The notes under the pieces were generated by a model. The model saw nothing but the letters and a program-made list of their open reading frames with translations. It did not search any database and was not told where the DNA came from. A DNA stretch of 42,267 nt from IMG/VR virus record IMGVR_UViG_2541047816_000004, positions 1-42,267 of that record, one strand, 5' to 3'. The stretch is from a virus. Its lineage: Duplodnaviria > Heunggongvirae > Uroviricota > Caudoviricetes. The position numbers were made by a program, and so were the translations under genes. This document shows positions 3,482-29,138 of this stretch, one piece after another (position 1 is the first letter of the stretch; each line of letters opens with the position of its first letter).

Positions 3482-6400
3482 TCAGCTAATCGTGATGCCT
3501 GCAGTGGCTTTCTTCATCACCACAACCAGCAAATCGCTGATACTTGCTGTGGGATACCAGTTATTTACCAGCCATGCTGACACCGAAAACTCCAGTGTCA
3601 TGTGACCGTGACCGGCAGGCATATCAATAACACCACTGTAAATCAGCGTATTATCCAGCGCGGTACGGTTATAAATTTCAGCACCGTTTTTCCGTACTAT
3701 CAGGCGGCATGACGAATAAATATCGTTATTCTCCCGCTCATGTTTAGCGCCGCTGAATGCCACCGCCGGAATAACAATCTGCCGGTCAAACGGCTGATCG
3801 TCATAAACCCTGACGGTGATGGTCCCTGATGGCCACCGTTCCGGTGCACGGGAGTCCCGGGGGAAAGCTTTGCCCACTGTTTTAACGAGATCGCCTTCAA
3901 TCTGGTTGGCGGACAATTTTCCCAGAACCCGACAGTTCTCGTTAATCGTGACGTTGTTGAGCGCCCCGGAGTTCGCATTCACGTTACCGCTGATATCGGC
4001 ATTTTTCGCCGTCAGCCGCCCGTCCGGTGTCAGGGAAAATGCCGGAGGATTACCGCCACTGGTAATGGTCGGAGCCGTCAGGCGTTTCAGGAACACGTCG
4101 TTCATGAATATCTGATCGCCCTGACCAACAAACATCGGCTTTGTGTTGCCATTCGCAGGATTAATCATCGCAATCCTGTCTGCCGCCAGCAGCACCTGAC
4201 TCTGCATACCGTCGGGGGTGTTCTCAATACCGGCACCAATACCCGCGATATAAAGGCGTCCATCCTGCATCTGCTGCAGCTTCACAGCCCACATGCTGTT
4301 CAGGTTATTATTTGTATCAACCTGAACCTTCTGTATCTGCTGGATTGCCGCACTCTGGTCTTCCAGTTTCTTATTGACAGTCTGCGTGATTTCATTGCTG
4401 ACATCCGTAATGGACGTCCTGATTTCAGCCAGGTCAGGCGCAAGCTGACCGTTATCAATCTGCGTCCACAGCTCCTGAGCCAGATGTGTTTTCCCTATCT
4501 CTCCTTTGAAAAAATCCAGGTAACCTTCCGCATCATCGCTCGCCCGGCCGACAGCCTCCACGAATGCCGATTTGCCAACGGTGTTCACACTGCGAACGTA
4601 AAAATAATAATCATGACCCGGCTTAATATTGATACTGGCAGCTATCCAGTACAGCGCCGTGCCAAGATAGCTGGCTGTGGTTTCAACCTGCCTGATATCC
4701 GCAATCCGCTTTTCCGAGAACCAGAACTCAAACTGTACCGTCGGATCATAAACGGCAAGATGCGGCGTGGCGGTTATCTGAAAATAGCCCGGCGTCAGCT
4801 CAATCTGCGACGGTGCTGCCGGTGCGGCAATCCGGAACGATACCGACGCCGGATCGCCCTGCTGCCCCCAGGCATTTGCCGCCCGGACCGTCAGTCTGTA
4901 GTTTCCCAGCGCCAGTTGCCTGAAGCGGTATGTGGTTTCCGTCGTCCGGGCCGTGCTGACCAGCCGCTCACTGCCGTCATCCGCTGCCACGGTCAGGCGA
5001 AGCATAAAGCTCACCCCCTTCACCACCTTCGGCGTATCCCAGCGCGCCAGCACCTGGTATTCCCCGCTGTCTGCGGTGACTTCTGCGGTCAGGTGCTGCA
5101 CTGCTGGCGGCGTGACACCGTTCACCGTTCCGCTCTGGTCGCCGTCAAAGTGCGCCCCGTTATCCACGATGGCTTCTTTCTCCGGCACATGCTGCACGGC
5201 AGTGATGGCATACGTGCCGTCATCGTTCTCACGGATACTCACACAGCGGAACAGGCGCTGGCGCAGCGTCGGCAGCTTCAGCCCCCATACGCTGTATTCG
5301 GCAACACCGTCAGGAACACGGCTCACTTTTACCTTCACGCCGTCGGTGACGGACTGAACCTCCACGCTGACCGGATTGCCACTTCCGTCAACCAGGCTTA
5401 TCAGCGTGGTACCGGAGGATGGCAGCGTGATTTCACGGTCGAGCGTCAGCGTCCGGGTCTGGCTGTTCACCGCCAGCACGCGACCACCGATGCTGATACC
5501 GGCATAGTCATCATCACAGATTTCAATGACATCGCCCGGTACATGGCGAAGCCCTTCGGCACCCACGCTGAAGTCCACGGTCTGCGTTTCCAGCAGTTCC
5601 GTTTTAATCAGCCACAGCCCGGCGCGGTGCGCCTGCCCCCGGCTGGTACAGCCAAAGGCATCCATCTTCGTGACGTTACGACCGTAACGGAGAATGGCCT
5701 GCGTATCTTCAACAAGCTCTGTCGCCGTCTCCCAGCCGTTATCCGGGTCAATCCAGTTCACCTCAACGGCATTATGGCGGTCCTTCAGGGCGCTGAAGCT
5801 GTAGCGGAACGGCGCGCCATCATCCGGCATCACCACATTACTGCGGTTATAGGTCCACACCTTATCCGACGGTCGGTCCTGCACGAACGTCAGCGTCTGC
5901 CCGTTCCATACCGGCATACAGCGCATCGCCGAACAGAAATCACTGAGCACATCCCACGCCTTACGCTGTGTGGTCAGGTAAGCGTTACAGGTGATGCGCG
6001 GCTCCGTACCACCAAAGCCATCCGGCACTGACTGATCGCAATACTGGCCGATGACATACAGCGCCCATTTGTCCACATCCGCCGCACCAAGACGTTTCCC
6101 CATGCCGTAGCGCGGGTGGGTCAGCATATCCCACAGACACCAGGCCATGTTGTTGCTGTATGCCGGTTTAAACGTCCCGTCCCAGATACCGCTGTATTGC
6201 CGCGTCTGCGGGTTATAGTTCGATGGCACCTGCAGAATGCGCCCGCGAAGATGATAATTACGGCTCACCTGCTGGCTGCCGAACTGTTCCGAGTCCACCT
6301 GCACGCCGACCAGTGCCGTGTTCGGGTAGCACTGTTTCACATCGATGATTTCAGTGTATGACGACCAGAGCGTTTTGTTCTGCAGCTGGTCTGTGGTGCT

Positions 6401-18432: not shown

Positions 18433-22102
<3,670 letters not shown>

Positions 22103-22128
<26 letters not shown>

Positions 22129-22648
22129 TCAGCAACCCCGGTATCAGTTCATCCAGCGCGGCTGCTTTGTTCATGGCTTTGATGATATCCCGTTTCAGGA
22201 AATCAACATGTCGGTTTTCCAGTTCCGGAAAACGCCGCTGCACCGACAGGGGGATCCCGTCGAGAATACTGGCAATTTCACCTGCGATCCGCGACAGCAC
22301 GAAAGTACAGAATGCGGTTTCCACCACTTCAGCGGAGTCTCTGGCATTCTTCAGTTCCTGTGCGTCGGCCTGCGCACGCGTAAGTCGATGGCGTTCGTAC
22401 TCAATAGTTCCTGGCTGGAGATCTGCCTCGCTGGCCTGCCGCAGTTCTTCAACCTCCCGGCGCAGCTTTTCGTTCTCAATTTCAGCATCCCTTTCGGCAT
22501 ACCATTTTATGACGTCGGCAGAGTCATAAAGCACCTCATTACCCTTCCCACCGCCTCGCAGAACGGGCATTCCCTGCTCCTGCCAGTTCTGAATAGTACG
22601 GATACTCGCGCCGAAAATGTCAGCCAGCTGCTTTTTGTTGACTTCCAT
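22103..22648 (-). CDS. nu1: Terminase small subunit Nu1
   Basis: 181 aa; MEVNKKQLADIFGASIRTIQNWQEQGMPVLRGGGKGNEVLYD matches lambda Nu1 as recalled. Confidence 0.95.
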
Positions 22649-23270: not shown

Positions 23271-23327
23271 AGCAATTTAGATAATCGTGCAGACTACGCC
23301 CCCTCATATCACATGGAAGGTACTACA

Positions 23328-23738
23328 ATGGCTCAGGTTGCCATTTTTAAACAAATATTCGATAAAGTGCGAAATAATTTAAACTATCACTGGTTTTATT
23401 CTGAACTAAAACGTCACAATGTTTCACATTACATTTACTATTTAGCCACAGAGAATATTCATCTTGTTCTTGAAAACGATAATACGGTTTTAATAAAAGG
23501 ACAGGGTAAGGTTGTAAATGTAAGATTTTCAAAAAATAAATGCCTTATAGAAGCCACCTTAAAAGGATTCAAATCAGGAGAGTTATCATTTTACGAATAC
23601 AGGAAAAATCTTGCTACAGCAGGGGTTTTCAGATGGATTACAAATATCCACGAAAACAAAAGGTATTACTATACCTTTGATAATTCATTACTCTTTACTG
23701 AGAACATTCAGAACACTACACAAATATTTCCGCACTAA
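23328..23738 (+). CDS. YbcV/YdfO-like (DUF1398) prophage protein
   Basis: [17 protein letters not shown]...[29 protein letters not shown] resembles YbcV/YdfO as recalled. Confidence 0.6.
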
Positions 23739-24045: not shown

Positions 24046-24510
24046 TTATCTGAGGCATTGCTCTCGAATGTATAGCTGTGCCCCTTCAAGTTGTTTTTGC
24101 ATTATTATCAGTCGCGCTCTGAGGGTGAAATAATCCCGTTCAGCGGTGTCTGCCAGTCGGGGGGAGGCTGCATTATCCACGCCGGAGGCGGTGGTGGCTT
24201 CACGCACTGACTGACAGACTGCTTTGATGTGCAACCGACGACGACCAGCGGCAACATCATCACGCAGAGCATCATTTTCAGCTTTCGCATCAGCTAACTC
24301 CTTCGTGTATTTTGCATCGAGCGCAGCAACATCACGCTGACGCATCTGCATGTCAGTAATTGCCGCGTTCGCCAGCTTCAGTTCTCTGACATTTTTGTCG
24401 CGCTGGGCTTTGTAGGTAATGGCGTTATCACGGTAATGATTCAGCCACAGACTAAGCGCACCACAGGCCACCAGCAGGGCAATGATGACCACGCACAGTA
24501 CGCGGTTCAT
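24046..24510 (-). CDS. Rz: Spanin inner-membrane subunit Rz
   Basis: [45 protein letters not shown] matches lambda Rz as recalled. Confidence 0.9.
24108..24290 (-). CDS. Rz1: Spanin outer-membrane lipoprotein Rz1, embedded in Rz in the +1 frame
   Basis: [20 protein letters not shown] lipobox plus proline-rich [16 protein letters not shown]. Confidence 0.85.
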
Positions 24511-24808: not shown

Positions 24809-25342
24809 TTATCTGTCGATACCCCAGCACGCCAGCGCGCTCTCCTGGTCACGACGGGATACCTGACCGTAGCAGTTGTTTGAACGAATACGGCAGTCTC
24901 TGCCACCGTCCTTAATCCACCAGCGAATCGCCTCACACGCTCCCCTGCGATCACCTGCATTAATTCGTTTGTAAAACGTCGACGGGAAACACTTACCGGG
25001 ACCAATGTTGTACGGACAGAATGACGCGATCCCCGCTTTCTGGGGTTCGCTCAATGGCACTTTGATGTTTTTCTCCACCCATGCCAGCGCCTTATCACGC
25101 TCAATGGCGTTGACCTGGTCGCATTTTTCCTTCGACAGTTTCATACCGGGAAAAACGGGTTTTCCATCCACCATCGTGGCCCCCCGACAGATGGTCCAGT
25201 TGCCGGAACCATCGCGGTATGCCGTTGTGTGGTTACCCTCTTTTTCGTCCAGAAACTGGTCAAGTATCTGAGGAGCAGACGCGCCTGCAGCAATCAGCGC
25301 CAGAACAGCAGCTGACAGGCCGTATTTGATTTTTACGCTCAT
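24809..25342 (-). CDS. Endolysin, lysozyme-like (GH24 family) with N-terminal signal-anchor-release (SAR) segment
   Basis: Hydrophobic Gly/Ala-rich N-terminus LSAAVLALIAAGASA followed by lysozyme-like domain. Confidence 0.75.
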   Translation of the reverse strand: MSVKIKYGLSAAVLALIAAGASAPQILDQFLDEKEGNHTTAYRDGSGNWTICRGATMVDGKPVFPGMKLSKEKCDQVNAIERDKALAWVEKNIKVPLSEPQKAGIASFCPYNIGPGKCFPSTFYKRINAGDRRGACEAIRWWIKDGGRDCRIRSNNCYGQVSRRDQESALACWGIDR

Positions 25343-25435: not shown

Positions 25436-25696
25436 TTATGGTATACCGCGCCTCTGAACAGGGGCGCGTTTCTGGCAACAGCTCGTCCCCTTCACATAAC
25501 CCGGCAGCAACATCCAGGAAGACCTGGCTGCTGCCTCATAAAACTCCAGCGCGGCACCTTCAACACGGTCCAGCGAGATGTCCAGGTCAAAAATTTCACC
25601 GTCAAAGCGTTTTTTGTCCCGTAACGCTAAAGTTACCGTAACTTTATTCTCAAAATTGCGGATCCCTTTCACAATCAGTTCATAGTTTTGAGTCAT
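25436..25696 (-). CDS. Hypothetical protein between holin and endolysin
   Basis: 86-aa ORF in the late operon; no family recognised. Confidence 0.4.
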   Translation of the reverse strand: MTQNYELIVKGIRNFENKVTVTLALRDKKRFDGEIFDLDISLDRVEGAALEFYEAAARSSWMLLPGYVKGTSCCQKRAPVQRRGIP

Positions 25697-25700
25697 TGAA

Positions 25701-25916
25701 TTACTCTCCCCGTGCAGCCTTACGACGGTCCTCTCTGATTTTGAAATACAGGTTAGTCAGATATGTCAGCAGCCCAAACAGCAGACTCCCCAGCACGCCT
25801 ATTGCCGCCCACTGAGACGGGGAAACCCTGTCCAGCAACTGCAGGAACCAGTAGCCCGTTCCCACCGCTGACGTAGTGTATGACACACCTGTTGTGATTT
25901 TTTCCATCTGGTCCAT
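25701..25916 (-). CDS. Phage-21-type class II holin (pinholin) with dual-start motif
   Basis: [45 protein letters not shown]...[17 protein letters not shown] resembles S21 as recalled. Confidence 0.85.
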
Positions 25917-26223
25917 ACCCCGTCTCCCGTTATCCGGAAGCTGACAACAATAAAAAAGCCACCAGTTAACTACTGATGGCTCTGATAACTCATGCAAGCG
26001 TCTCAGACGATCCACTGACACTATCGGTGAGTTTAACGATACCTTCCATTTGACTGGCTCACTTTTTATGATGATGCCGGTGCATTTATCTCCAGCACCA
26101 GACTTTCTATCTCAACGCCATACGTTGCATTTTTGGTAATATCCGTCAGCGTCAGTGCATTTAGTCCCACTGCCAGACTGTCTTTTATGGCCTGGAATGC
26201 CGGGCCAGTACGATGACGTAGTA

Positions 26224-26427
26224 TCACTCCGGCTCAGTTGCACCGCTGACCACCACATCACCTTCTGCTGCAATCGCCTGCATCAGGGTATAAGGGGTTA
26301 TGGCCACCGGACTACCAAACGGCTGCCAGCCCTCTTTCAGTTTATGTGTCAGCTTTTCCGCAAGATCTGACGGCGGCGCCGCCCTGACAACATCATAGTG
26401 TTTAAATGCCATGGTTCTTTCCACCAT
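26224..26427 (-). CDS. Hypothetical protein upstream of the holin
   Basis: 67-aa ORF with GGTGGAAAG SD-like sequence upstream. Confidence 0.45.
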   Translation of the reverse strand: MVERTMAFKHYDVVRAAPPSDLAEKLTHKLKEGWQPFGSPVAITPYTLMQAIAAEGDVVVSGATEPE

Positions 26428-26672
26428 CTGAAAAATAATTCTTTAAAATGCCTGACATGTAATACAGAAAAAAACACAAAACCATACCTTAAATAAAAAC
26501 CTGATTATCAAGCAGATATGCATGGATAAACTACAAGACGAGATATAAACCACCCTGTATTTAAATAAACAATAAACAACATCAGAAAAATAATTCTGCT
26601 CTATGGTTTAATTCAAAAATATCATTTATACTTTTCAGAACATCACCAGCAAGGCATAAACAAGGAAAGTAA

Positions 26673-27008
26673 ATGAAGTGGATTGTGATTGATACAGTTA
26701 TCCAGCCATCATGCGGAATATCTTTTTCAGTCATATGGAGTAAAATAAAATTAATAATCTGGTATCAATCGGATGCTTTCTTACCTCCTGAAAGTATATT
26801 TACACTGACTCACACAGGCATCATGCTCAATAACAAAGTGCTGCCTGTAACCATTTACAACGTAGTACCATTCAATAAAACATTCTGGAATTTAATCAAA
26901 AACAGCCAGGAATGCCCTACAAATACAGATAACGTATTGAATGAATGCTTTAATAACCGTTGCACTCTGCAAATATGTCCTTATGGACTAAAACAACAAA
27001 GTCCATAA
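26673..27008 (+). CDS. Hypothetical cargo protein, AT-rich, antisense to the late operon
   Basis: 111-aa ORF with AAGGAAAG SD 5 nt upstream of ATG; several Cys; no family recognised. Confidence 0.5.
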
Positions 27009-27455
27009 GGAGTTTACTCACATCTGACAAAATCAATATAAACAGCCCCTCCGGAGAGGGGCTGGAGAGTGGCGCTATGTGCCATTGCATGGTGCCGGGT
27101 GCCTCCCGGTGAATTCAGTACCAGCACCTGAATCCGCGATTATCCCATATACCTACTCGCTGATTGCCCCACCGCACAGGGGGATTCACCATGCCAGTTT
27201 CTTTTAACAAACTCCCCGCAAACCAGACAACAGTCAACCGCCTGAATTGTGAAGTATTTAAAAATTTCTCCCGCTAACTGATACCCGGCTAACAGTCTGG
27301 CGTTTTCTTTTTCAGCAACGGGAAAGCAACAACCACCACACCCGCCACCAGCACACCGTCAGCCAGCACTGACATTATCCGGCTGCTGCAATGCCATTCA
27401 CAAAAACAGTAAGCAATCACTTTTTACCGTAACAGGTGATAATCCAGATATGTAT

Positions 27456-27809
27456 CTACCCCAGATGAGTAATCCGAAGTTCATCCATACCACAGGTCCT
27501 GGCTATTCTGTTGTACTCCTGAACAAGAGCAAATAATTCTGAATTAGCAACCATGAACTCATCGCAAACCCTCTGTATAGCATCACTATTCAGAATAATA
27601 ACGTCTCTTCCCGAAAGACGATCAGGAGTACAGAACAAAACTGTCAAACGGCTGAAGGCCTTTGCTCGTGCTGCATTGACTATATCAATACGCTGCCTAA
27701 GGATGAAACACCCCGACGCCTCATCAATATTCACTCTACCCACACCATATGAATGATAAATATTTAATGCTGAAAAAACCATTAGACCGTATAACAAATA
27801 TTCAATCAA
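27456..27809 (-). CDS. Hypothetical ORF downstream of the tRNA cluster (uncertain)
   Basis: 117-aa ORF with TTG start and no clear SD. Confidence 0.3.
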   Translation of the reverse strand: MIEYLLYGLMVFSALNIYHSYGVGRVNIDEASGCFILRQRIDIVNAARAKAFSRLTVLFCTPDRLSGRDVIILNSDAIQRVCDEFMVANSELFALVQEYNRIARTCGMDELRITHLG

Positions 27810-27919
27810 TACTTAACAGAACTTTTATTTTTGACAAACATATAATATTTTCAACAATATCCTGAGCCAGGTATATTTCAGTATAAGGCTCTGCCGGAAG
27901 GAATCTGGAAGAATGAATA

Positions 27920-27996
27920 TGGCGCGCTGTACTGGATTCGAACCAGTGACCGATTGCTTAGAAGGCAATTGCTCTGTCCGGCTGAGCTAACAACGC
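27920..27996 (-). tRNA. tRNA-Arg (anticodon TCT)
   Basis: Hand-folded cloverleaf: 7-bp acceptor, GCTC/GAGC D-stem, ATTGC/GCAAT anticodon stem, loop CTTCTAA, TTCGAAT T-loop, encoded CCA. Confidence 0.8.
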
Positions 27997-28009
27997 TGAA
28001 TACCGATAA

Positions 28010-28090
28010 TGGACCGCCATCGGGGACCCGCCCCCCGCACCAACAACCCTGTTATCGTGTCGTCTGCTCTTCCTGATAAGCTAATGGCGG
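28010..28090 (-). tRNA. Degenerate tRNA-like sequence (possible tRNA pseudogene)
   Basis: Perfect 7-bp acceptor stem CCGCCAT/ATGGCGG plus T and CCA, D- and T-stems present, but no canonical anticodon arm and aberrant T-loop GGCGGGT. Confidence 0.3.
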
Positions 28091-28097
28091 TTTGTGA

Positions 28098-28173
28098 TGG
28101 TGGCCCTTGCTGGATTTGAACCAGCGACCTGGCGATTATGAGTCGCTCGCTCTCACCACTGAGCTAAAGGGCC
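28098..28173 (-). tRNA. tRNA with CAT anticodon (Ile2-like or Met)
   Basis: GGCCCTTTAGCTCAGTGGTGAGAGCGAGCGACTCATAATCGCC...GGTTCAAATCCAGCAAGGGCCACCA, resembles ileX/ileZ as recalled. Confidence 0.8.
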
Positions 28174-28210
28174 GGGAGCAGAATAATAACGGTCCATAAT
28201 TAATTCCGCA

Positions 28211-28236
28211 ATAAAAAACCCGCTCGGCGGCGGGTT
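28211..28236 (-). terminator. tR-prime-like intrinsic terminator ending the short late leader transcript
   Basis: Minus-strand AACCCGC-CGCCGA-GCGGGTT hairpin followed by TTTTTTATT. Confidence 0.65.
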
Positions 28237-28283
28237 GTAGAAACTCTTCTAACGTCAGGCATAAAACGCCCATCATTATGACG

Positions 28284-28311
28284 AATTTACCACAGATTCC
28301 GGAAAAATCAA
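28284..28311 (-). promoter_or_regulatory. PR-prime-like late promoter (-35 TTGATT, 16-nt spacer, -10 TAAATT), probable qut region
   Basis: Consensus-like hexamers immediately downstream of the Q stop and upstream of the terminator. Confidence 0.5.
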
Positions 28312-28316
28312 CCTTG

Positions 28317-29138
28317 TTACCTAGTTACCTTTTTTAACTGCCGCTCAGCCCATGCTTCTTCAATATCAAACCGGGTCACCAGCGCATCATAGAATTTCTT
28401 AACTGTTTTTTCCCATGACGCGCGTGTTATCTGGTTTGTCACCTCGCATATAGCATTAAATGCCTCCGTTGATGGTAGTCTTTCATAGCCACGACCACCA
28501 CAACGCTGGCAGTCTCTGATAACAGGCATACCACGTTTTACCGACTCTTCACGATGAATGGCGACACCACGCCCACGGCAATCCTTACAGGCGGTGGAAA
28601 CCTCACCCTTTCCGCCACACTCCGGACAGGCAACTTTTACCACCTCCCTGACTTTTTTCCATTCTTCCCAGTAAGACGGATACACACCTTTCGTACACTT
28701 TGCCCATACCGGCGGCTTACCATCCGGATACTGGACCTTGTTTGTAAAAACTACGCTTTCAATAAATTTTTCCCCATAGCAACAAGGGCACTGCTTTTTA
28801 CTCGCTGCGCTGCGGGCATAATCCTCAAAAGCGTACGAAGCCATAATGCGCATCACTAACGGTTTTATTTCTGCCGGAAGTTTTCTCAACGCCGCCACAC
28901 GATCGCACCGACTGAGTGCATAATCTGCCAGTAATTCTGTTGCCCGCGCCCTGTCATTCATACTGATGCCCATTTTCCCCAGGAACGCAGAAAACCCCAT
29001 CTCAGCCCGATTCTGTGTCATGCCCTGCGCGGCCATCACATCAGTGATACTCAGCGCATCTTTTGACGTTGAGGCCGATACATCGGTCAGGCCAGGGGAT
29101 TTTGGGGAGTAGTATTTCGGTAAATCTTCCAGTTTCAT
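28317..29138 (-). CDS. Q: Late antiterminator Q (lambda Q family with Cys-rich insertion)
   Basis: KYYSPKSPGLTDVSASTSKDALSITDVMAAQGM and CxxC pairs; C-terminus ...YDALVTRF..VTR like lambda Q. Confidence 0.8.
   Translation of the reverse strand: MKLEDLPKYYSPKSPGLTDVSASTSKDALSITDVMAAQGMTQNRAEMGFSAFLGKMGISMNDRARATELLADYALSRCDRVAALRKLPAEIKPLVMRIMASYAFEDYARSAASKKQCPCCYGEKFIESVVFTNKVQYPDGKPPVWAKCTKGVYPSYWEEWKKVREVVKVACPECGGKGEVSTACKDCRGRGVAIHREESVKRGMPVIRDCQRCGGRGYERLPSTEAFNAICEVTNQITRASWEKTVKKFYDALVTRFDIEEAWAERQLKKVTR

Follow-up and report, generated by a model that had tools for sequence, protein, structure and literature searches.

Accessory genes flanked by the late tRNAs and the holin of a lambdoid prophage: iraL, an STnc100-family small RNA gene, decayed cassettes and a conserved 92-codon frame

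Composition of the cargo zone

The subject of this study is the DNA at positions 26,428 to 27,919 of the virus record IMGVR_UViG_2541047816_000004 (Caudoviricetes), whose whole length of 42,267 nucleotides (nt) was analysed and is referred to as the window. The region belongs to a lambdoid Escherichia coli prophage, whose late operon runs on the minus strand of the window. A sequence-only reading had described it as an uncharacterised AT-rich cargo locus that lies between the tRNA cluster of the late promoter and the holin, at the place where lambdoid phages carry the Shiga toxin (stx) genes, with two open reading frames (ORFs) on opposite strands that matched nothing recognisable and a strong hairpin. 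The description as uncharacterised does not hold, because one of the ORFs is assigned here to the studied gene iraL (PMC4045071) and the hairpin falls within the curated Rfam family STnc100. The region is very probably a mosaic accessory-gene ("moron") zone in a prophage late operon of the type found in the "potB island" of Escherichia coli CFT073, and consists of four separate cassettes, two of which are well known. Resolved into its parts, the locus contains iraL, already known as a gene for lysogenic conversion, a small RNA (sRNA) that is likewise known from prophages, and two cassettes in decay, which leaves over a frame of 92 codons named here orf92. The features of the zone are listed in the direction of late transcription.

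27735-27919, minus strand: AT-rich leader/promoter zone upstream of orf92, with a guanine plus cytosine (GC) content of 30.3% (from composition)
27456-27734, minus strand: orf92, 92 codons with a GTG start
27421-27448, minus strand: deletion joint between the end of tciA and the start of tciB (alignment with JLK-2012)
27289-27420, minus strand: ORF of 43 amino acids (aa) with DUF3927, assigned as a tciB remnant (PF13064, alignment)
27034-27223, minus strand: STnc100 sRNA gene, full length (Rfam RF02076)
27043-27064, minus strand: hairpin, assigned as the intrinsic terminator of STnc100 (terminator scan, folds, Rfam alignment)
26673-27008, plus strand: iraL, 111 aa, transcribed against the late operon
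26428-26672, plus strand: iraL control region, 28.2% GC (mapped leader located, promoter alignment)
26066-26427, minus strand: stump of nanS-p (yjhS, sialate O-acetylesterase), the downstream boundary of the cargo zone (blastn, PF08410)
26224-26427, minus strand: 67-aa DUF1737 ORF, part of the nanS-p stump

The sRNA gene to which the hairpin belongs, the 43-aa DUF3927 ORF and the nature of the DUF1737 ORF as a nanS-p stump had not been part of the sequence-only reading. The low GC content noted for the locus is correct on average, at 39.3% as opposed to 51.3% in the whole window, but it is patchy. In addition to the control region of iraL and the leader zone of orf92, the iraL coding sequence is low in GC (34.8%), and between these blocks lie the STnc100 gene with 55.3% and the 43-aa ORF with 50.8%. 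A megablast search with positions 26400-27920 against 5,426 complete E. coli genomes found the cargo region with 100% identity in at least eight genomes and with a coverage of at least 80% in 863 of them.

The 111-aa gene iraL

The plus-strand ORF of 111 aa is assigned by its sequence to IraL, an anti-adaptor of RssB. Its product is identical in 111 of 111 residues to IraL of CFT073 (WP_000871291.1, c1429), and over the full coding region it shows at least 95% identity to CFT073 iraL, the criterion applied by Hryckowian et al. Window positions 25461-28215 are 97.3% identical to CFT073 DNA. In the CFT073 prophage adjoining potC/potD, which encodes WP_000871291.1, the genes follow one another as they do in the window, the shared context being Q, tRNAs, DUF3927, iraL, DUF1737 and holin. 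CFT073 differs in carrying the insertion sequence (IS) IS200C at the tR'-like terminator and an intact third tRNA gene, which are absent or disrupted in the window.

IraL of the uropathogenic E. coli CFT073 binds RssB and stabilises RpoS in logarithmic growth (Hryckowian et al., 2014, PMC4045071). It is a paralogue of IraM with 58.9% identity and is encoded on the CFT073 "potB genomic island" (PMC4045071). In CFT073, iraL mRNA increases after a shift to 37 °C, and IraL levels are raised in a fur mutant. Binding of RssB and stabilisation of RpoS are presumed for the window protein from this literature on an identical protein.

The relationship to IraM is also visible in the family and structure comparisons. 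The NCBIfam model NF007393 (IraM) gives a match of 162 bits, the cut-off being 121, in which residues 1-110 are aligned with positions 1-113 of the 114 in the profile, and the identity to K-12 IraM (b1160) is 62% at the amino acid level. Residues 1-78 match the IraM chain of PDB entry 8TWD, in which IraM is bound to RssB, with an E-value of 9e-32, and this N-terminal 78-residue RssB-binding core aligns without gaps. IraM contacts both domains of RssB, remodels its helical linker and blocks the binding of sigma-S (PMC10844676). However, IraL differs from K-12 IraM by a C-terminal extension of four residues, and no similarity to the K-12 iraM locus exists beyond the coding sequence, within which the nucleotide identity is 70.6%. 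The two genes also differ in their regulation, as iraM is induced by Mg2+ starvation and iraL acts in the logarithmic phase (PMC4045071, PMC10844676).

The good Shine-Dalgarno sequence and the promoter-like upstream sequence that had been noted for this ORF were both recovered. The 5' end of CFT073 iraL mRNA determined by RACE (rapid amplification of cDNA ends), ACATCACCAGCAAGGCATAAACAAGGAAACCA (PMC4045071), is found in the window from position 26640, which is the equivalent of the transcription start site (TSS), and the same mapped leader as in CFT073, ACATCACCAGCAAGGCATAAACAAGGAAA, is present at this position. It is preceded by a -10 element (TATACT) at 26627-26632, and the Shine-Dalgarno sequence AAGGA lies at 26664-26668 before the iraL ATG. 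The gene has an iraL-type sigma70 promoter and leader with the equivalent of the mapped TSS, but it lacks 1 nt in the putative -35 element and has two bases changed ahead of the ATG. Promoter alignment showed its upstream region to be unrelated to that of K-12 iraM. The putative -35 element (26604-26612) varies from strain to strain: it reads TTTACA in CFT073 and TTTATA in phage 640R1, and carries the 1-nt deletion in the window and in ECMA0423. The strength of the iraL promoter may differ between lysogens.

In K-12, iraM and ycgX (DUF1398), at 3681-5108 of comparison locus L004, are collinear with and in the same relative orientation as iraL and the DUF1398 gene of the window (23313-23738, plus strand), with about 70% nucleotide identity in the coding regions only. 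The K-12 genes are about 700 bp apart and have no lysis cassette between them. Given this collinearity, the K-12 iraM locus appears to be what is left of a lambdoid late region of this kind.

The hairpin and the STnc100 sRNA gene

The strong hairpin had been placed a few bases away, at about 27039-27062. It has a stem of 9 bp with seven GC pairs and a loop of 4 nt, followed by UUUAUAUUGAUUUU on the minus strand. This U-tract is found on the minus strand only, the plus strand having none. In an 81-nt stretch around the hairpin, the plus-strand fold was better than 200 of 200 shuffles (z = -3.6). A cmscan search matched STnc100 (RF02076) to positions 27034-27223 on the minus strand with 130.5 bits against a gathering score of 47 (E-value 1.3e-29), covering model positions 1-206 of 206. 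In the Rfam alignment the hairpin corresponds to model positions 178-206, which form the 3' end of STnc100, and it is accordingly annotated as the intrinsic terminator of a full-length sRNA gene of this family.

The structural elements of the family are the closing stem formed by GCAUGGUG and CACCAUGC, a pair of inner GC hairpins and the 3' terminator with its U-tract. All of them are found in the window copy, which has a single U-U mismatch in the first inner hairpin. Among nine aligned copies from related loci, the closing stem and the inner hairpins are kept in all nine and the terminator in seven; in one copy a G-C pair of the closing stem is replaced by A-U, a compensatory change. In mEp460 and JLK-2012 the 5' two-thirds are kept and the 3' end is different. 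The terminator hairpin has the same sequence in phage phi296 (Sepvirinae, Traversvirus), in which the STnc100 element lies directly between the tRNAs and nanS.

STnc100 is well known from the prophages of enterohaemorrhagic (EHEC) and enteropathogenic (EPEC) E. coli. Eleven copies are present in EDL933, nearly all of which have RNA sequencing reads and one of which was seen on a Northern blot (PMC5331693); in EDL933 and Sakai, other copies are reported to be transcribed as discrete RNAs and to associate with Hfq (PMC5331693, PMC12711010). The Hfq-binding sRNA EcOnc27/sRNA103, which originates just downstream of stx2, overlaps STnc100 (PMC12711010), and the family is related to the PasD sRNAs of EPEC prophages (bioRxiv 10.64898/2026.05.13.724894). 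The window copy occupies the same place in the late operon as these relatives, past the cargo and before nanS-p. It differs from them in that it follows orf92 and the tciB remnant instead of stx2 and is convergent with iraL, whose stop codon is 26 nt from the 3' end of STnc100, the hairpin itself starting 35 nt past the stop.

In ten related loci STnc100 follows cargo cassettes, sometimes with two copies per locus, as in L003, L006 and L010. This recurrence after successive cassettes suggests that the STnc100 unit doubles as a conserved joint for the recombinational exchange of cargo. A plus-strand pseudogene of a "hypothetical protein" is annotated at 27079-27207 by the NCBI prokaryotic annotation pipeline (PGAP), and phage annotators also call short plus-strand ORFs there; these calls are probably artefacts because the stretch lies entirely antisense to STnc100.

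The stx-equivalent slot

In Stx2 phages, STnc100 is located about 75 nt downstream of the stx2 operon (PMC12370729), which places the strict equivalent of the stx slot between the tRNAs and STnc100, so that by this layout its content is orf92 and the tciB remnant. The stx-equivalent position assigned by the sequence-only reading is appropriate in that the locus is the moron zone between PR' with the tRNA cluster and the lysis cassette, but iraL itself lies one slot further on. The iraL module comprises about 630 bp (roughly 26414-27043) with 28-35% GC and occupies the next interval, from the STnc100 terminator to the start of the deleted nanS-p. Phage mEp460_ev081 matches 27086-27920 with 99% identity, but has a "TolA" protein and another ORF in place of iraL, and the iraL interval is thus an exchange point in its own right.

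The conserved frame orf92

The minus-strand ORF of 117 aa described earlier does exist (27456-27809, with a TTG start), but it is over-extended, as conservation is confined to the final 92 codons, which start with the GTG at 27734. The 5' extension upstream of the shared GTG contains frame-breaking indels between alleles, is out of frame in comparison locus L010 and was modelled with a predicted local distance difference test (pLDDT) score below 50. The gene is taken as the 92 codons of 27456-27734, since the extension is frame-broken in L010 and of low pLDDT and the relatives are mostly 91-95 aa long.

Within these 92 codons, comparison with a 61%-identical allele (L010) gave rates of nonsynonymous (dN) and synonymous (dS) substitution of 0.30 and 1.13, a ratio of 0.26, with 24, 22 and 44 differences at the three codon positions. 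Conservation ends at the stop codon and at the GTG, and the antisense ORFs show no conservation. The divergent E. coli allele combines a degenerate tciB region with an intact orf92, which argues that orf92 is selected on its own. In other E. coli prophages (L006, L007-L011), this divergent orf92 lies immediately downstream of a gene for a 241-aa AraC-family (HTH_18) regulator, and in several contigs an IS3-family element just upstream of the GTG replaces the non-conserved 5' extension.

For orf92, a word-indexed search of 5.8 billion proteins returned 23 matches, all from Escherichia or Shigella where named and including the allele of about 57-61% identity, and an exhaustive profile search of 1.84 billion representatives yielded only 21 proteins, all short and unnamed. 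The seven most distant relatives retrieved have 91-106 aa, five of them 91-95 aa. Relatives that span the complete core are 91-95 aa long, those of 92-95 aa occur in Citrobacter, and the identity of length-matched relatives falls to about 32-40%. An orf92 relative heads an intact series of orf92, tciA (TerB domain), tciB (DUF3927) and holin both in Citrobacter braakii and in a contig of a metagenome-assembled genome (MAG), as seen in comparison loci L015 and L016. A genome scan for relatives gave three species-level genomes, one of which is the MAG contig labelled "Bacillota" (L015, JAEWMQ010000075.1). On its 2.7 kb, orf92, tciA, tciB and the holin are at least 62% identical to the enterobacterial versions, and it is probably a mis-binned fragment of an enterobacterial phage rather than Bacillota. 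Of the 5,426 complete E. coli genomes, 1314 contain the DNA of orf92; among 30 rows sampled, 28 are without an annotated feature under the match. A tblastn search of 50,697 phage records found only mEp460_ev081, where it is unannotated. A correspondence of orf92 to the third gene in the tciABC operon of P1 was considered and rejected: P1 tciC has only 35 aa and is unrelated, and mEp460_ev081 was the only tblastn match.

A family match is available only to phrog_2873, of unknown function, with an E-value of 3.8e-70 from residue 10 of the 117-aa ORF, end to end over 108 positions, although this profile includes 16 N-terminal residues that the divergent allele does not conserve. Pfam and NCBIfam gave no match to orf92, a sub-threshold RHIM hit of 12.8 bits being disregarded. 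The statement that neither protein matches anything recognisable was wrong for the 111-aa ORF and holds for this one with respect to function. Matches of both ORFs to known housekeeping or phage proteins had been named as the outcome that would refute the reading; such a match was obtained for IraL alone. Of the checks that had been proposed, homology searches identified the 111-aa ORF, and for the 117-aa ORF homology searches and structure prediction gave a two-helix hairpin without an informative homologue. In the AlphaFold2 model, the helices span residues 28-60 and 75-106 (numbering of the 117-aa ORF) with a mean pLDDT of 70 and a predicted template modelling (pTM) score of 0.60, so that the product is predicted to be a two-helix hairpin protein. 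Foldseek comparison of the model with the PDB and BFVD gave no match with an E-value of 0.001 or below, the top entries being adaptor hairpins of efflux pumps and designed helical bundles. The defence models of PADLOC gave no match for orf92, IraL, the tciB remnant, TciA or a Citrobacter relative of orf92.

The decayed cassettes

The 43-aa ORF matches PF13064 with 95.6 bits against a cut-off of 25 bits as well as the TciB-like phrog_1470, and is listed in RefSeq as WP_000562553.1. Its 28 C-terminal residues, encoded by the 3' two-thirds of the ORF, are identical to TciB of JLK-2012. In the 5' part about 20 nt were lost in small deletions and a new start arose, with the result that the first hydrophobic segment is gone and the second remains. 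Positions 27421-27448 hold the last ~20 nt of tciA and the start region of tciB (24 of 28 positions identical to JLK-2012), and the other ~430 bp of tciA are absent. A full TciB of about 50-54 aa with two hydrophobic segments and translational coupling to an upstream tciA with a TerB domain is not found in the window. By these alignments the ORF is a tciB remnant of a TerB-type tciA-tciB cassette from which tciA has been deleted. It shares with P1 the association of the tci cassette with a phage tRNA cluster and differs from P1 and JLK-2012 in the loss of tciA and the rearranged 5' part of tciB; the Tci proteins of P1 and JLK-2012 have their own function assigned only "by homology".

The second decayed cassette is nanS-p. 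Relative to JLK-2012, about 1.5 kb are missing from the interior of the gene, between the 67-aa DUF1737 ORF and a 53-aa ORF that comes after it. According to blastn against JLK-2012 yjhS, 26193-26405 correspond to the 5' end of the gene and 25700-26208 to its 3' end plus the holin, the 3' end being joined directly to the holin region. What is left of the gene for a full esterase of about 620-650 aa is ~70 codons at its start and ~140 nt at its end. The DUF1737 ORF matches PF08410 and the first 58 of 634 positions of phrog_143, and is treated as a pseudogene by PGAP.

Weighing of alternative explanations

Some observations weigh against the assignments made above. The region contains six sigma70-like sites, which is no excess over the shuffle expectation of 4.9 +/- 2.2. 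Compared with CFT073, 1 nt is missing in the window from the putative -35/spacer region of iraL (TTTACA to TTTA-A), and there is a CC to GT change just before the ATG (two bases before), at a position polymorphic among strains, so that the promoter strength of the window gene could differ from that in CFT073. For STnc100, the sigma70 scan identified no promoter beyond weak 9/12 matches. In the case of orf92, the Shine-Dalgarno sequence before the GTG is weak, no promoter was identified apart from a weak site (TTGAAA-16-AAAAAT, 27854-27827) that is not above the shuffle expectation, PGAP leaves the gene uncalled in SCU-125 and CFT073, and the model with its pLDDT of 70 was built on a shallow alignment of 13 sequences.

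It could be argued that the 111-aa gene is an orthologue of K-12 iraM, induced through PhoP by Mg2+ starvation, and not of the log-phase IraL type, as RefSeq/PGAP labels the ORF at 26673-27008 "anti-adapter protein IraM", NCBIfam uses the same name, and the fold family and the 62% identity are shared. This is very unlikely, because the protein is identical to IraL and not to IraM, the nucleotide identity to K-12 iraM is limited to the coding region, and the upstream region is unlike that of iraM and carries the iraL leader; neither at least 95% identity to K-12 iraM nor the iraM control region was found. In the survey of Hryckowian et al. (PMC4045071), matches to iraL and iraM were each at least 95% identical to their own query and formed sets without overlap. 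More doubtful still, to the point of being hardly credible, is the reading implied by an stx-equivalent position and a Cys-containing ORF, namely that the locus encodes a hitherto undescribed toxin or virulence factor that is secreted like Stx. Only the position and the low GC content speak for it. The cysteine-containing ORF is the cytoplasmic IraL, and orf92 lacks a hydrophobic N-terminus and was modelled as a soluble helical hairpin. No match to toxin or defence families was obtained in Pfam, NCBIfam, PHROGs or PADLOC, and no signal peptide was seen in the genes between the tRNAs and the lysis cassette, their N-termini being judged by eye only.

With regard to orf92, the frame might be open by chance in non-coding or decaying DNA, with no gene between tRNA-Arg and the DUF3927 ORF. 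The missing PGAP calls in SCU-125, CFT073 and 28 of the 30 sampled genomes, the TTG or GTG start with its weak Shine-Dalgarno sequence, the lack of Pfam, NCBIfam and PADLOC matches and the clear decay of the neighbouring tciA and tciB all fit this explanation. We nevertheless consider it improbable, since the frame stays open across the 61%-identical allele with a low dN/dS and doubled third-position changes, length-matched relatives include the one heading the intact cassette of C. braakii, conservation stops at the stop codon and the GTG, and the antisense ORFs vary. A slightly greater, still small, likelihood is given to the view that the hairpin is a bidirectional terminator for the convergent iraL and phage genes and that STnc100 is a recombination linker here rather than a working sRNA. 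The short distance between the iraL stop codon and the hairpin, the recurrence of STnc100 at cassette boundaries, as expected of a cargo-shuffling sequence, the lack of a promoter in the scan and the differing 3' ends in mEp460 and JLK-2012 point in this direction. On the other hand, the plus strand is without a U-tract, which would make termination of iraL at the hairpin inefficient, and a bidirectional terminator is therefore not favoured; the full-length match has its family stems intact, other EHEC copies are abundant transcripts, including the one on the Northern blot, and EcOnc27 binds Hfq. The roles of terminator and sRNA are, moreover, not mutually exclusive. The preferred reading remains that of a log-phase iraL, a full-length STnc100 gene and a coding orf92.

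Proposed mode of action and significance

As part of a lysogen, iraL would be read from its own sigma70 promoter, opposite to the late operon, and would act as a lysogenic-conversion function. IraL would bind the adaptor RssB, so that sigma-S (RpoS) is not delivered to ClpXP and RpoS and the general stress response rise during growth. The STnc100 hairpin would end both the sRNA and lysogen-stage transcription coming from the upstream cargo, and could in this way insulate iraL, nanS-p and the lysis genes. In lambdoid phages, it is established that RNA polymerase modified by Q reads through terminators. After induction, such a polymerase might pass the STnc100 terminator and produce antisense transcription across iraL; conversely, RNA reading through from iraL would be complementary to STnc100, which might couple the RpoS-boosting gene to the lysis-lysogeny state. 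We infer the insulation and antisense steps, like the timing of expression, from the layout and from Q antitermination. The late transcript could provide the orf92 product, or else orf92 could have its own weak promoter.

Overall, the locus exemplifies a lambdoid prophage that may rewire the general stress response of its host, as IraL would raise RpoS in growing cells, an effect that has been linked to the way in which uropathogenic E. coli and Shigella adapt to their niches. The sequence is common among E. coli genomes, IraL and STnc100 are already known, and current understanding is not overturned. What is added is the position of iraL outside the stx slot, the punctuation of cassettes by STnc100 copies that may serve as exchange joints, and a conserved 92-codon gene, widespread in E. 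coli, that standard annotation has missed. In the exact slot of stx, orf92 appears as a real-looking conserved small gene without an informative homologue, which is present, and almost never annotated, in about a quarter of the complete E. coli genomes. It appears to be under purifying selection while the tciA/tciB neighbours decay, and its product is a candidate accessory protein, most likely a cytoplasmic one of the phage. A bolder proposal, which we regard as improbable when its parts are taken jointly, is that orf92 is a genuine unrecognised phage accessory protein, perhaps a host-modulating or superinfection/envelope-stress factor, and, as a second and smaller point, that iraL is coupled to the lysis-lysogeny state.

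Neighbouring genes and minor observations

The position given for the locus, with the late tRNAs on one side and the holin on the other, was confirmed, as Q, the tR'-like terminator, two tRNA genes and a class II holin were all located. The flanking features are, again in the phage sense:

29135-29509, minus strand: RusA
28317-29138, minus strand: antiterminator Q (PF03589, E-value 2.6e-55)
28217-28236, minus strand: tR'-like terminator (terminator scan)
28098-28173, minus strand: tRNA-Ile2, anticodon CAT (called as Met by ARAGORN; tRNA-Ile in RefSeq on identical sequence; Rfam tRNA 72.5 bits)
27920-27996, minus strand: tRNA-Arg (TCT), the upstream boundary of the cargo slot (ARAGORN; Rfam tRNA 68 bits)
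25701-26021, minus strand: P21-type class II holin (PF04971)
24809-25342, minus strand: lysozyme, late operon
24046-24510, minus strand: Rz, late operon

The first late-region tRNA past Q and tR' is tRNA-Ile2(CAT). In CFT073 a third tRNA gene (Arg) lies between Ile2 and Arg-TCT. At 27997-28097 (minus strand), the corresponding window sequence is equally long, with its anticodon-arm region replaced; neither ARAGORN nor Rfam calls a tRNA there, and it is probably a disrupted argN-like pseudo-tRNA. Sub-threshold Rfam matches to Trp_leader (28210-28316), Plastid-ycf2 and Yar_3 were dismissed as chance. In CFT073, the tR'-like terminator that closely follows Q has IS200C inserted in its T-tract (about 21560-22270 of comparison locus L005), which corresponds to a site at about 28210-28215 in the window. 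As the window is free of this element, its sequence presents the uninterrupted PR'-tR'-tRNA arrangement.

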